Origin: Promethearchaeota archaeon
Lineage (GTDB): Archaea; Asgardarchaeota; Lokiarchaeia; Sigyniarchaeales; SOKP01
DNA length: 33,854 nucleotides
Assembly (NCBI GenBank): GCA_048940645.1
Contig: JBHLOI010000040.1
Span: forward strand, 1-33,854
Direction: 5' to 3'
Shown here: positions 3,011 through 20,903 of the stretch, piece after piece
Layout of the letters: the number at the start of each line of letters is the position of its first letter
How positions within the stretch are numbered: the first letter of the stretch is position 1
Position numbers and translations under genes: made by a program
Notes under the pieces: model-generated
What the model saw: only the letters and a program-made list of their open reading frames with translations
Told to the model about the DNA's origin: nothing
Databases searched by the model: none

Positions 3011-5047
3011 ATGTCTGAAATACAGACCAAAGTAAGAATCGGAGTTTATATTTGTAGATGAGGAGTTAATATTAGTTCTTCTATCGATTGTAGTCTTATT
3101 AGAGATTATGTTGAAGCACTACCAAACGTCATTGTTGCTAAAGTAAATGATTTTACTTGTAGTGATCCAGGGCAAAATATTATCAAAAACGATATTTTAG
3201 ATTTAGATTTAAATCGGGTAGTTGTTGCAGCTTGTACACCAAAAATTCATGAATCCACCTACCGATTAGTTTTAGCTCAAGCAGGATTAAACCCTTATTA
3301 CTTCCAAATGGTTAATCTTCGCGAACATTGCTCATTTACTTACTCGGGAAATAAAAGAAGTATTACTGAAAAAGCTATAAGGTTGGTGCAAGCAGGGATA
3401 AATCGTGCCAGAGAATTAGAAATTATACCTCATAAAAAGATATCAGTAGAAAAGTCGGTATTAATTATCGGCGCTGGTATTGCAGGGATGAATGCTGCAT
3501 TAGACTTAGCAAATCATGGAATAAATGCAAATTTAGTTGAAAAGGAAGCCACAATTGGCGGAAAAATGGCACAATTGGATCGAATATATCCTACAGACGA
3601 TTGTGCTATATGAGTTCTAGCACCTATTATGGTTAGTGCTTCAAAACATCCAAATATAAAATTATTTACTTATAGTGAAGTTATTAAATTCGGGGGCATC
3701 CCAGGAAATTATAATGTTAAAATACACAAGAAACCTCGTTTTATAAATGAAAATAAGTGTACAGGTTGTGGATTATGTACGACTAAATGTCCAATAAAAG
3801 TACCTAACGAGTTTAACAGAGGTATTGGGGAAAGAAATGCGATTTACATACCTTTTCCTCAAGCAGTGCCTAGAATTGCTCTAATTGATAAGAATGTATG
3901 TATAGATTGTAAAAATTGTAAAAATTCTTGTCCCGCAGAAGCTATTGAATTAGATCAAAACTCAGAATATATCGATTTAAAAGTTGGTGCGGTAATTATT
4001 GCCACAGGTTGGGATGAATATCCAATTATGAAAAAAAATGAATATAAATATGGCATTTATCCAGATGTTATTACTCAACTAGAGTTAGAACGTATGTTAA
4101 GTCCAGTTGGACCAACCGGTGGTCAAGTGTATAGAATTTCTGATGGGAAAATCCCCAAAACAGTAGCTATGATTCAATGTGTAGGTTCAAGATCCTTAAA
4201 AGGGAATCCCTATTGCTCAGGAGTATGTTGTAATGTGGCACTTAAAAATGCTCAATTGTTAAAGCAAGAATATCCTGATATAGAAATTGTTATTTTTTAT
4301 ATAGATATGCGGACCTGGGATAAAGGAAATGAAGAATATTATAGAAAAGCGAGAGAAGCGGGGATAATGATGATTCGTGGAAAAGTAGGAGACATTCGAG
4401 AAGATACTAGCATAAAGAAAATAAAACTTACAGCTTCTTCAACTTTAACAAATGATTTCATTACCATGAATACCGATTTAGTTGTACTATCTACAGGTAT
4501 GATCCCTTCTAAAAAAACAGCACAAATTATTGAGACATTAAGTATAGCTAAAGATATGAATGGGTTTTTAACTGAAGTTCATGGATGCCTAAAACCTCAA
4601 GAGACAAGTAATTTAGGTATTTATATATGTGGCTGTGCTACTGGACCTAAAAATATCCCTTATTCAGTATCAACTGCATTAGCTGCCGCAAGTAAAGCAT
4701 CTATTTTACTTTCTAAAGATACAATAACTCAAGAATTAATCATCGTTGAAGTAAATGAAAATCTATGTATGGGTTGCCATAGATGTGAAAAACTATGTAA
4801 TTATAAGGCAATAAAAATTAATGGAGATAATATAGCTGAAGTAGACGACTTAAAATGTAAAGGTTGCGGAGTTTGTGTTACATCATGTCCCGCTCGAGCA
4901 ATTGATCTTAAATATTACAGAGATAAACAAATTATTGAAGAGATAAAAGGGATTTGTAGTACTAAACTTGAATATAAGAAAGAATATATTGAATCTATTG
5001 AACTTATTTGGAAAAAGATCGAAGCTTTAGCTCCTTATCAAACATAA
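3011..5047 (+). CDS. hdrA: Heterodisulfide reductase subunit A, selenoprotein (678 aa; Sec at codons 17 and 201)
   Basis: ATG at 3011 follows AGGTGA. One frame runs through TGA 3059-3061 (GVYICR-U-G, where homologs have GVYVCHCG) and TGA 3611-3613 (PTDDCAI-U-VLAP, homologs DCxxCILxP), joining ORFs 3308..3613 and 3629..5047. Motifs: AACTP, NLREHCS, GAGIAG, IQCVGSR, YCSGVCC and ferredoxin repeats. Confidence 0.93.
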
Positions 5048-5048
5048 A

Positions 5049-5117
5049 CTGAAAATGAATGATCCTCTTAAGAAAATGTTAGTTGAGAGGGAACTAATCC
5101 ATAGCATGGGTTTTCAG
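5049..5117 (+). promoter_or_regulatory. SECIS-like element (eukaryote/Loki type) in the hdrA 3' UTR
   Basis: AUGA 5059-5062; stem CCUCUUAA (5064-5071)/UUGAGAGG (5083-5090); A-rich loop GAAAAUGUUAG; GA 5091-5092; outer helix CUGAAAA (5049-5055)/UUUUCAG (5111-5117). Confidence 0.72.
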
Positions 5118-5680: not shown

Positions 5681-7036
5681 ATGTTAGAAGATAAAAAAAA
5701 GGATCAGACAAAAATTGTTTATCCAGAAGCTTTAATTCCTACTGATCAAATTGAAGTTTCTAGAATTGTAGAGAAAGAAATACTAATTGAAACTAACCCA
5801 TTTGAAATGGCAAAAAAACAAATCGATATTGTTGCTAAAAAGATGGGATTAGATCCAAATATAAAGGAATATCTCAAAAGAGTAGAACGCTCACTGATTG
5901 TATCAATTCCAATTATTATGGATGATGGCTCTTTAAAGATATTTGAAGGATATCGGGTACATCATTCTACTGTTAGAGGTCCAGGAAAAGGTGGTATCAG
6001 ATATTCTCCAGATGTCTATTTAGATGAAGTTAAAGCTTTAGCCACGTGGATGACCTTTAAATGTAGTCTGTTAAATTTGCCTTTAGGAGGGGCAAAAGGA
6101 GGAGTCTGCGTAGACCCTCGAAAGTTATCGGAGGGAGAATTAGAGCGTCTAACTCGGAGATATACTGCTGAAATTATAAATGTTATAGGCCCAGATATAG
6201 ATATTCCCGCTCCAGATATTAATACTGGTCCTCAAATTATGGCTTGGATTATGGACACCTATTCTATGCATAAAGGGAGAGCTATTCCTGGAGTAGTTAC
6301 AGGAAAACCAATCGAAATAGGAGGTTCAGTTGGGAGAGAAACTGCAACTGGAATGGGTTTGTTTTATGTCCTCAAAGCTTTATGCAACAAAATAAATATC
6401 GATCTAAAAACCCAGAATATTGTTGTTCAAGGATTTGGAAACGTCGGGGGTCATATTGCTAATATTTTATATGAGAAAGGTTGTAAAATTATCGCTATCT
6501 CGGACATTACTGGAGGTTTATACGCTAAAAGTGGATTAAATATAAAAAAGTTATTAGAATGGAGAAATAGGAATAACTATCTAAAAGATTTTCAAGATGA
6601 AAATTACAAATTTATCACTAATGAAGAGATACTCACAATTAAATGTGATATTTTAATCCCAGCAGCAATAGAAAACCAAATAACACAATCAAATGCTTAT
6701 AATATTAATTGCAAAATTATATTAGAAGGTGCTAATGGACCAACTACTCCAGAAGCAGATAATATTTTGAAGAAAAGGGGAATTATTGTTGTACCTGATA
6801 TTCTTGCCAATGCTGGAGGCGTATGTGTCTCATATTTTGAGTATATTCAAGACATCCATAGTTATTTTTGGAATCTAAACAGAATTAATCAAGAACTAAA
6901 AAATATTCTTGGTGAGGCATTTAAAGATGTTTATAATTTATCTATAGAAAGATCTGTCACTCTTCGTACAGCTGCATATATGATTGCCATTTTAAAGTTA
7001 GCTAAAGCAATCGAATTAAGAGGCATTTTCCCATAA
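5681..7036 (+). CDS. gdhA: Glutamate dehydrogenase (Glu/Leu/Phe/Val family), copy 1, with N-terminal extension
   Basis: GPGKGGIR, MTFK, GGAKGG, PAPD, TGKP, GFGNVG, EGANGP and DILANAGGVCVSYFE motifs. Confidence 0.93.
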   Translation: MLEDKKKDQTKIVYPEALIPTDQIEVSRIVEKEILIETNPFEMAKKQIDIVAKKMGLDPNIKEYLKRVERSLIVSIPIIMDDGSLKIFEGYRVHHSTVRGPGKGGIRYSPDVYLDEVKALATWMTFKCSLLNLPLGGAKGGVCVDPRKLSEGELERLTRRYTAEIINVIGPDIDIPAPDINTGPQIMAWIMDTYSMHKGRAIPGVVTGKPIEIGGSVGRETATGMGLFYVLKALCNKINIDLKTQNIVVQGFGNVGGHIANILYEKGCKIIAISDITGGLYAKSGLNIKKLLEWRNRNNYLKDFQDENYKFITNEEILTIKCDILIPAAIENQITQSNAYNINCKIILEGANGPTTPEADNILKKRGIIVVPDILANAGGVCVSYFEYIQDIHSYFWNLNRINQELKNILGEAFKDVYNLSIERSVTLRTAAYMIAILKLAKAIELRGIFP

Positions 7037-18357: not shown

Positions 18358-18558
18358 TCAAGAGTTTCGAAATAACCTGCTTTTTTCTGTATTTTGTTCT
18401 TCATGACAGTGAGGACAAATCCAAGTTGTTTCATTTTTTTTAACTGAATTTATACATTCATTACAGATTGTTATGTCACAGATACAGTAATAGCATTCGT
18501 TGAGAAGATCTTCACAGCTCTTTTCACAGATATAACAAAAAGGCGGATTTTTGGACAT
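18358..18558 (-). CDS. Stand-alone C4C4-type RING finger protein
   Basis: Cys spacing C-x2-C-x13-C-x-C-x4-C-x2-C-x12-C-x2-C. Confidence 0.72.
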   Translation of the reverse strand: MSKNPPFCYICEKSCEDLLNECYYCICDITICNECINSVKKNETTWICPHCHEEQNTEKSRLFRNS

Positions 18559-18897: not shown

Positions 18898-19152
18898 TTA
18901 CTTTTTCCTCTTTAAAAAAGAGTCAATACCAAGAGTTTTGAAGATAGTATCTTTAATGTCCATCTGGATTTTCATATCTCGCATAATTTTAAGAGATTCT
19001 TCAAGGGTTTTTGAGAAATTCTCACTCATTTCCTTTATTGTATCAGAGGTTAACATTAACGACTCTCTTATTGCTTTATTTGTATCATGTAATTCTTCAG
19101 CCATTCTATCTATACTTTTCCTCAATTCAGAAAGCTCATCTTTAATGCCCAT
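18898..19152 (-). CDS. Small coiled-coil protein with basic C-terminus
   Basis: Heptad-like pattern over about 65 aa, ending FKTLGIDSFLKRKK. Confidence 0.65.
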   Translation of the reverse strand: MGIKDELSELRKSIDRMAEELHDTNKAIRESLMLTSDTIKEMSENFSKTLEESLKIMRDMKIQMDIKDTIFKTLGIDSFLKRKK

Positions 19153-19297
19153 AATGAAACGCCCTAATGTTTATACCATTGATATCAAAAATATTTCAAG
19201 GTTTTAGTATCTTTCTAAAATTATTATATATAATAAATATTCTTTTATAATTTCAATTTCTTATTTAATATATTAATTTTAAAAATTGAATTCGAAA

Positions 19298-19444
19298 ATG
19301 TCAGAATGGAAATATAGAATAGAAGAATCGGAATCAGATAATAACTACTGTTCAGGATGAGGAATTATTGATTCCATCATTGCTAGTTTCAGAAATATTA
19401 ATAAAAAACGAAAAAAAAAGAAGAATAAAAATCTCAAAGATTAA
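19298..19444 (+). CDS. Candidate 48-aa selenoprotein with CxxU motif
   Basis: MSEWKYRIEESESDNNYCSG-U(TGA 19358-19360)-GIIDSIIASFRNINKKRKKKKNKNLKD-TAA. It fills an otherwise empty intergenic gap. Confidence 0.45.
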
Positions 19445-19535
19445 GTTAAGAAATGTTAGGATTTAATCTTATAAGTTTTGTGAGGACTTGAGATAATAAT
19501 AATATTGATTTTTTTATTTTTAGACAACTGTAACC

Positions 19536-20903
19536 TTAAAATGGATTATTTGCTCCTTCCCCAACCTTTCGATATACAAATCCCTTACTCTCGAGTATTT
19601 CCCTATTAAAGATATTTCTACCATCGATAATTATAGGAGTTCTTATTCTTTTCCTTAAATCATCCAAATCTATATTATAATATTGCTTATGCTTGGTTGT
19701 AAACATTAAAACATCGGCTTCTGATACTGCTTCGTTAAAATTAGTGGTGAAATCTGTTAAACTATAATCTTTTAATTTAACATAGGGATCATGTGCCATA
19801 TAAACGATATTATGGGAGTGATATTTACTCGTCAAATTTTTGACTATATGTTCTGCTGGTGTATTCCGAGTATCATCTGTATTTGCCTTATATGAGACTC
19901 CTAAAAGAACAACTTTTATATTATCGACTACTTTTCCTATTTCTTCAAGAGCATCCTCCATTAATTCTACCATATGTTTAGGCATATAATCATTTAGATT
20001 CCTGGAATCATGGATAATTTTTATTTTCGATTTATTTTTGCCTTGAGAATATTTATCATATCCATGCAATAATAACCATGGATCTTTCGTTAAACAGTAT
20101 CCTCCTACTCCAGATCCAGGATAATGCATCATTCTATCTTCTCGTTGATTTATTAATTTAATAATTTCAAAGATATTTCTATTAAAATCTTCGCATAATA
20201 ATGCCATTTCATTAGCAAAGGCTATATTCACATCTCTATACGCATTTTCTATGCATTTAGTTAATTCCGCTGTAAGCGTATCGGTTAAATTTAGATCCTT
20301 TTTAACAACTTTTTCATATAAGAATCGTGCTCTTTCAAGTGCTTTCTTACAATCCCCGCCAATCACACGAGGAACATCAGTAATAAATTCTAATAATTTG
20401 CCAGGCATAACACGTTCAAAAGAAAAAATTAAATAAAAATCTTCACCCCTTTTTAATCCACTTCCTTCCTCTAATATAGGCTGCACAATATTATTGGTTG
20501 TTCCAGGAGCAACAGTTGATTCAATAATTATCGTTACTCCTTTTTTCATATGTTTGGATAGTTTCTCAGAGACTTCTATAAGTGATTCATATCTGGGGAT
20601 TTTATCTTCAATCTCAACAGGTGTTTGTACGTCAATTAAAATAAAATCGGCATTATTGCATGCATCATAATTGTCGGAAACATAGAATTTTTTATTCATT
20701 ACGACTCTAGAAATTAATTCACCTAATCCAGGTTCTTCCCCTTCAAACGGATTCTTTCCGCTATTAAGCCAATCAATTTTCCACCCTGATCTTTGAGAAT
20801 TCCGCTGAATTCCTGTAACAAAAAAATCATCAACATCTGCTAGCATTGTGGCCATGGGAATTCCAACATAACCCATTCCAATAATAACAATATTTGTTGG
20901 CAT
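19536..20903 (-). CDS. Nucleotide-sugar dehydrogenase (UDP-ManNAc/UDP-GlcNAc 6-dehydrogenase, WecC-like)
   Basis: GMGYVG, VQTP, IESTVAPGTT, ERVMPG, KCIENAYRDVNIAFANE, GVGGYCLTKDP, YKANTDDTRN and IIDGRN motifs. Confidence 0.9.
   Translation of the reverse strand: MPTNIVIIGMGYVGIPMATMLADVDDFFVTGIQRNSQRSGWKIDWLNSGKNPFEGEEPGLGELISRVVMNKKFYVSDNYDACNNADFILIDVQTPVEIEDKIPRYESLIEVSEKLSKHMKKGVTIIIESTVAPGTTNNIVQPILEEGSGLKRGEDFYLIFSFERVMPGKLLEFITDVPRVIGGDCKKALERARFLYEKVVKKDLNLTDTLTAELTKCIENAYRDVNIAFANEMALLCEDFNRNIFEIIKLINQREDRMMHYPGSGVGGYCLTKDPWLLLHGYDKYSQGKNKSKIKIIHDSRNLNDYMPKHMVELMEDALEEIGKVVDNIKVVLLGVSYKANTDDTRNTPAEHIVKNLTSKYHSHNIVYMAHDPYVKLKDYSLTDFTTNFNEAVSEADVLMFTTKHKQYYNIDLDDLRKRIRTPIIIDGRNIFNREILESKGFVYRKVGEGANNPF

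Follow-up and report, generated by a model that had tools for sequence, protein, structure and literature searches.

The window analysed here, the whole stretch of 33,854 nucleotides (33.9 kb), is an entire contig of a 3.83-Mb assembly (30% G+C) from an Asgard archaeon of the Loki type. On its plus strand, in a 383-nt gap between two minus-strand genes, sits an unannotated ORF with its ATG at 19298 and its TAA at 19442–19444. If its in-frame TGA is read as selenocysteine (Sec, U), the product has 48 residues and contains the motif C-S-G-U. The initial annotation had proposed this ORF, with a single TGA placed as CxxU, as a candidate selenoprotein gene, and both the coordinates and the reading proved exact. 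The features of the locus, in order along the window, are the following:

18898–19152, minus strand: neighbouring ORF of 84 aa, coiled-coil-like
19264–19277, plus strand: A/T-rich, TATA-like run, centre about 28 nt before the ATG (read from the sequence)
19298–19444, plus strand: putative micro-selenoprotein gene (family A), 48 codons and TAA (conservation in relatives)
19349–19351, plus strand: codon for Cys18 (TGT), proposed partner of Sec in CxxU (invariant Cys column in the alignment)
19358–19360, plus strand: in-frame TGA, codon 21, very probably read as selenocysteine (TGA in all 34 genus orthologues)
19431–19494, plus strand: SECIS-like RNA with a three-way junction, overlapping the last four codons of the ORF (RNAalifold, 34 sequences)
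19431–19435 with 19490–19494, plus strand: helix I of this RNA (UCUC/GAGA invariant)
19437–19447 with 19460–19470, plus strand: helix II (10–11 bp)
19448–19459, plus strand: apical loop (12 nt here, 11 in most orthologues)
19475–19487, plus strand: side hairpin, nearly abutting the 3' strand of helix I
19509–19521, no strand assigned: oligo-T runs (T7, A, T5) between the convergent genes, after the RNA element (read from the sequence)
19536–20903, minus strand: neighbouring gene for a nucleotide-sugar dehydrogenase (TIGR03026, 346 bits)

From its N-terminus (MSEWK) the family A product runs through an acidic stretch to Y-C-S-G-U-G-I-I-D, and from there into an amphipathic helix and a Lys-rich tail. 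The start context, TTCGAAAATG, is also found at the ORF at 5681 (the initial annotation had pointed to gdh-1), and the TATA-like run that had been remarked upon is present at 19264–19277. An A/T-rich box lies at a similar distance before the start in 34 orthologues, and no Shine-Dalgarno sequence was seen ahead of the micro-ORF in these. We infer, without promoter data, that the run at 19264–19277 is a promoter that gives rise to a leaderless mRNA or to one with a very short leader. Farther upstream, 45–70 nt before the ATG, most same-genus orthologues have a conserved block (19222–19250; ATATAAT, about 7 nt, and a CTTTTAAGA-like stretch). The block separates the micro-ORF from the divergent 84-aa gene, either of which it could serve as promoter or operator. 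Oligo-T is a type of terminator in archaea, and the runs at 19509–19521 appear terminator-like, an inference from general knowledge for which there are no termination data. The 84-aa gene upstream and the dehydrogenase gene downstream keep their positions at nearly all same-genus loci and at many, but not all, of the loci in other genera; this is taken as conserved gene order and not as a functional link. In the window, ARAGORN detected no tRNA, and no Rfam family reached its gathering threshold anywhere. A 66-aa Cys-rich ORF (18358–18558, minus strand), described as RING-like in the initial annotation, gave only a weak match to FYVE_2 (E 0.0044, below the cut-off).

As a single sequence, the ORF at 19298–19444 is not beyond chance. 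The window contains 20 ATG-initiated ORFs of 45 codons or more in which TGA occurs just once, as compared with 21 ± 5 in shuffles, and one CxxU ORF of this kind as compared with 0.54 expected in shuffled windows. It is conservation in relatives that decides whether the gene is real. A six-frame search with the ORF found matches in 33 of the 36 same-genus genomes, at 40–85% identity, each with exactly one in-frame TGA. Among the other 134 genomes of the GTDB family to which this one belongs, a profile of 34 sequences picked up one copy of family A in 104, which cover 11 of the 13 genera; for the six remaining families of the class it gave nothing credible. All of the genomes compared are MAGs, and the relatives are not independent samples. 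Every confident match across the family has exactly one in-frame TGA, always in the same column, and TAA or TAG, which according to the initial annotation would have refuted the candidate, never occurs there.

S-E-W-K, the Cys, the TGA and D25 are present in each of the 34 orthologues extracted from the genus for alignment, and a hydrophobic stretch and the Lys-rich tail come next. The spacing of Cys and Sec is CxxU in 30 of them and Cx4U in the other four, and gap runs in the nucleotide alignment are mostly multiples of three. Translation would start at ATG in 32 of the 34. The remaining two have ATA, in both cases with an in-frame GTG three codons upstream; since this GTG is the start chosen by gene callers in related metagenomic copies, the ATA codons are not evidence against translation. 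The gene is real, and its UGA is conserved.

About 35 called homologues of family A, on short contigs, were found in protein libraries of 5.8 billion and 1.8 billion. At the Sec column nearly all of them have W, and one has Leu, the W meaning that the caller read TGA under another code. Neither library yielded a Cys homologue of family A. Of the UGA or Cys homologues that the initial annotation had suggested looking for, the first exist and the second, for family A, do not appear. One metagenomic copy of family A (L126:1501–1644) has TTA (Leu) at the Sec codon, together with an intact 63-bit RNA element and, 300 nt beyond that, another one. This copy could be a sequencing variant, a decaying form or one without Sec.

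The organism uses Sec, as the initial annotation had deduced from HdrA. In the genome a tRNA-Sec gene (62 bits) immediately precedes SepSecS (477 bits), SelD contains a single in-frame TGA, and each of three VhuD genes contains two. The window itself carries an HdrA-like gene (3011–5047; 815 bits to HdrA2) with in-frame TGA codons at U17 and U201. Under table 11 this gene is broken into separate ORFs; downstream of it lies a canonical lokiSECIS (5055–5117) with an outer helix, a main stem-loop and a 3' side hairpin. Reassignment of the genetic code can be ruled out, as TGA ends 234 of the 1832 long ORFs genome-wide (12.8%) and conserved genes are uninterrupted. TGA being an ordinary stop codon throughout the genome, reading UGA otherwise needs a local signal. 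The 28 large ORFs of the window have no TGA stop (22 end in TAA and 6 in TAG), as against the genome-wide frequency of TGA, which is probably a matter of sampling. SepSecS is present in 130 of the 135 genomes of the GTDB family, and for this reason a contrast between presence and absence is impossible and the phylogenetic profile is uninformative.

The RNA at 19431–19494 forms a conserved structure. In the RNAalifold analysis, 13 of its 19 pairs show compensatory changes, and paired cells amount to 96.6%; none of 500 shuffles reaches any of five measures, and slid registers also fall far below. In the orthologues the apical loop is A-rich and ends in AG, mostly in UAG. R1, a covariance model built on the element, has a single significant match in the genome, this one at 73.5 bits; the other selenoprotein genes therefore lack the element in its complete form. 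At the 33 loci with the element, it always follows an ORF of family A or of a second family, B, described below.

We then compared the element with the 10 canonical lokiSECIS of the genome, which conform to the pattern AUGA, a 9-bp stem, an A-rich loop of 11–12 nt ending in AG, and [G/A]A. This pattern agrees with the published description (PMC4989117). All 10 also have a 3' side hairpin with a loop of the GCGA, GCAA or GCUC type, and most have an outer helix; the side hairpins of the 10, which lie on ten contigs, start 2–6 nt after GAC/AAC. We found no description of this three-way layout of canonical lokiSECIS in the sections consulted of two SECIS papers (PMC4989117, PMC11227280). With lokiSECIS, or Asgard type I eSECIS-like elements, the micro-ORF element shares the main helix, the A-rich loop of 11–12 nt ending in UAG, the 3' side hairpin and the outer helix. 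The hdrA element at 5055–5117 forms the same three-way junction as the micro-ORF element, and the loop sequences of the two are nearly identical. The genes known to carry lokiSECIS (HdrA-VhuD, VhuU/FrhA and Prx-like) likewise have an in-frame UGA in a Sec-using Lokiarchaeial genome and an element immediately behind the stop codon (PMC4989117, PMC11227280). Moreover, the use of one element for two adjacent Sec genes, found among them, is also seen with the micro-ORFs.

The micro-ORF element differs from the canonical ones in its core. Every published Asgard SECIS model requires the AUGA/GA core (PMC4989117, PMC11227280). In the micro-ORF element the AUGA 5' of the upper stem is absent, and columns 13–16 pair instead with columns 43–46 in covarying Watson–Crick pairs. 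The GA/AA 3' of the upper stem is also absent; paired U/C residues stand there, followed by a linker of 2–4 nt. The replacement of the core by Watson–Crick pairs lengthens the stem from the canonical 9 bp to 11 bp. Whereas the outer helix of the canonical elements varies in sequence, that of the micro-ORF element is invariant (UCUC/GAGA in 34 species), and helix II covaries freely. The invariant helix I may stand in for the missing core. The SECIS of Euryarchaeota (Methanococcus type) likewise lies in the 3'-UTR in an archaeon, but its GAA_A bulge between two stems is not present here.

A covariance model of nine canonical elements of the genome (R2) matched micro-ORF elements only weakly (best 23 bits, E 0.017) and for the most part without significance, and the window's copy was not among the matches listed. 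This weakens a formal claim that the element belongs to SECIS; it is also the reason why screens driven by SECIS would pass over the gene. In some relatives R2 also gave matches of 20–25 bits, among its better ones, that fall within the coding sequence of the neighbouring 84-aa gene, on the strand opposite to family A (L022:361–402, L025:1125–1166 and L026:360–401). These are probably due to chance, as the neighbour has no TGA.

Family B is a second micro-ORF, which follows family A on its strand in 64 of the 134 other genomes of the GTDB family (at L029, L034, L035, L095–L097 and L107, for example). It was not found in the window's own genome with the query used. Its products, of 46–50 aa, have an acidic N-terminus and the motif D-C-Y-x-T-S-U-S-L-I. 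They resemble those of family A in size, in the acidic N-terminus, in the Cys followed by Sec, in the amphipathic helix and basic tail, and in the 3' element; they differ in sequence and in that family B has Cys forms. Family B lies 250–400 nt downstream of family A or directly abuts it, and one genome has three copies.

The number and position of R1 matches vary with this arrangement. Where A and B, each with its TGA, are separated, there are two matches. Where B starts about 30 nt past the stop of A, at four loci, there is only one, after B, the same arrangement as in hdrA–vhuD. In three species with a Cys-form B there is also one, after A only. These Cys forms without an element come from one clade and probably go back to one event in evolution. 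A further Cys form, unlike these three and from another genome, still has an element, although a weaker one (36 bits, as compared with 50–86) with a C to A change in the invariant UCUC; because of this case the correlation between Sec and the element is imperfect. The RNA is tied to the UGA-containing micro-ORFs, and tracks them closely but not perfectly; family B thus lends support to its interpretation as a SECIS. We found no description of a family B micro-selenoprotein in the papers searched.

It could be argued that a standard near-cognate tRNA (one for Trp or Cys, for example) reads the UGA, or that it is passed by programmed read-through independent of Sec, which the RNA stimulates without the Sec machinery. 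The core that defines Asgard SECIS is missing, family A has no Cys homologue, and a natural variant with Leu at the site exists. However, the loop, stem length, side hairpin and outer helix of the element are like those of the genome's own SECIS, the UGA stands in a CxxU context in a GTDB family in which nearly all genomes have SepSecS, and Sec and Cys exchange in family B. Exchange of this kind is the usual signature of a selenoprotein. We give little credence to decoding of the UGA without Sec.

Alternatively, the UGA could simply terminate translation, to give a peptide of 20 residues, and the conservation downstream could stem from the RNA element or another non-coding role. Such a reading would suit a genome in which TGA is an ordinary stop, and an RNA that has no canonical SECIS core and is barely seen by the canonical model; nor is there direct evidence of read-through. 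Yet 22 codons separate the UGA from the RNA element, and they behave as coding sequence. In the 34 orthologues pN/pS is 0.38 ahead of the UGA, 0.51 over the next 13 codons and 0.52 in the tail; whether before or after the UGA, variation is highest at codon position 3. Past the UGA this frame has no stop in any of the 34, whereas the two alternative frames contain 87 and 85. D25 is invariant, G26 is widely kept across genera, and in family B of some species a Cys codon takes the place of the TGA. Selection on the coding sequence extends past the UGA, as the initial annotation had held that it should if the candidate was genuine, and termination at codon 21 is hardly tenable. Finally, a chance ORF over a conserved non-coding RNA or promoter region, which the initial annotation had left possible and which the shuffle-like frequency of the single sequence would allow, is contradicted by a start, frame, TGA and amino-acid pattern kept across 11 genera with identity down to 40%, and by the lack of stops in the one frame only, and can be dismissed.

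We consider it very probable that 19298–19444 is a real gene for a selenoprotein of 48 residues, in which the UGA is decoded as Sec under the direction of the RNA at 19431–19494. Translation would start at the ATG at 19298, on a leaderless or short-leader mRNA, and at codon 21 Sec-tRNA(Sec) would decode the UGA in place of termination. The recoding would be directed by the three-helix RNA, which begins 71 nt after the UGA and may represent a variant of the eukaryote-like SECIS of Lokiarchaea, with Watson–Crick pairs where the AUGA/GA core normally stands. The identity of residue 21 as Sec and the function of the RNA as a SECIS are both inferred, in the absence of expression or selenium-incorporation data.

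The family A protein matched no Pfam and no NCBIfam family, and it has no relative in the PDB (the best sequence match, at E=1, is meaningless). AlphaFold2, run with the 34-row alignment, predicts a helix at residues 4–10, a loop and a helix at residues 20–46, with medium confidence overall (mean pLDDT 70) and a pLDDT of about 85 over residues 21–40. The predicted second helix and the Lys-rich tail agree with the amphipathic helix and polybasic tail that had been expected past the UGA. In this model Sec21 lies at the start of the long helix. A Sec at the N-terminus of a helix with a Cys three residues before it has the geometry of a CxxC/CxxU redox centre, from which a selenylsulfide redox role is inferred. 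The product is predicted to consist of a short N-terminal helix, a loop with Cys18, a long amphipathic helix from Sec21 onwards and the Lys-rich tail; Cys18 and Sec21 would form a selenylsulfide pair, and the basic tail may hold the peptide on an anionic surface. That Cys18 and Sec21 make up a redox centre rests on the motif and on a model of medium confidence, with no biochemical data. Attachment to such a surface, which could be a membrane or nucleic acid, is likewise only suggested, by the basic tail.

A likeness to SelW had been seen in the motif. The local likeness holds: the context Y-C-x-x-U-G is what we take to be that of SelW. Membership of the Rdx family (SelW, SelT and SelH; PF10262) does not, as there is no Pfam match and the product has 48 residues and is modelled as two helices without a beta-sheet; it is too short for a full Rdx fold, as the initial annotation had itself recognized. 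Only the local CxxU in its Y-C-x-x-U-G context is shared, and four orthologues of family A have Cx4U.

The earlier view that the ORF belongs to no known archaeal selenoprotein family also holds, since family A lacks Pfam and NCBIfam matches and is not among the seven families listed for Asgard archaea. Mariotti 2016 reported five families in Lokiarchaeota and no further candidates from a SECIS-based search (PMC4989117). Huang 2024 screened 409 Asgard MAGs solely for known families and with SECIS patterns requiring GA...[G/A]A, and lists seven families (PMC11227280). The same list of seven is given in a 2026 review (PMC13188914). In the papers searched we found no description of micro-selenopeptides such as these. 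The published Asgard families were all found by homology to known selenoproteins or with SECIS models that require the core (PMC4989117, PMC11227280). With no known homologue, no Cys form and a signal without the core, the family A gene escapes both kinds of search. Family A, with 45–60 residues, is new with respect to the families that bear lokiSECIS. We conclude that it is a genuine, previously undescribed family of micro-selenoproteins with a core-less SECIS variant, in which the UGA is almost certainly read as Sec; its function is unknown.

A broader proposal, towards which we lean with some reservation, is that in the Lokiarchaeia of this family a SECIS without the kink-turn-like AUGA/GA core inserts Sec, the loop, main helix and three-way junction being sufficient for the archaeal reader, and that it is used for a lineage-specific group of selenopeptides of 45–60 residues, families A and B. 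With its missing core, the element is an experiment of nature that can show which features of a eukaryote-like SECIS are read by the Asgard machinery. This bears on the origin of the eukaryotic SECIS/SBP2 system and is testable in a Methanococcus reporter (PMC9622424). Archaeal selenoproteomes are probably undercounted. A CxxU peptide of 48 residues with one long helix would rank among the smallest natural selenoproteins, and would be a tractable model for Sec chemistry. On the same proposal, family A, which apparently lacks any Cys equivalent, would have a chemistry for which selenium is indispensable.
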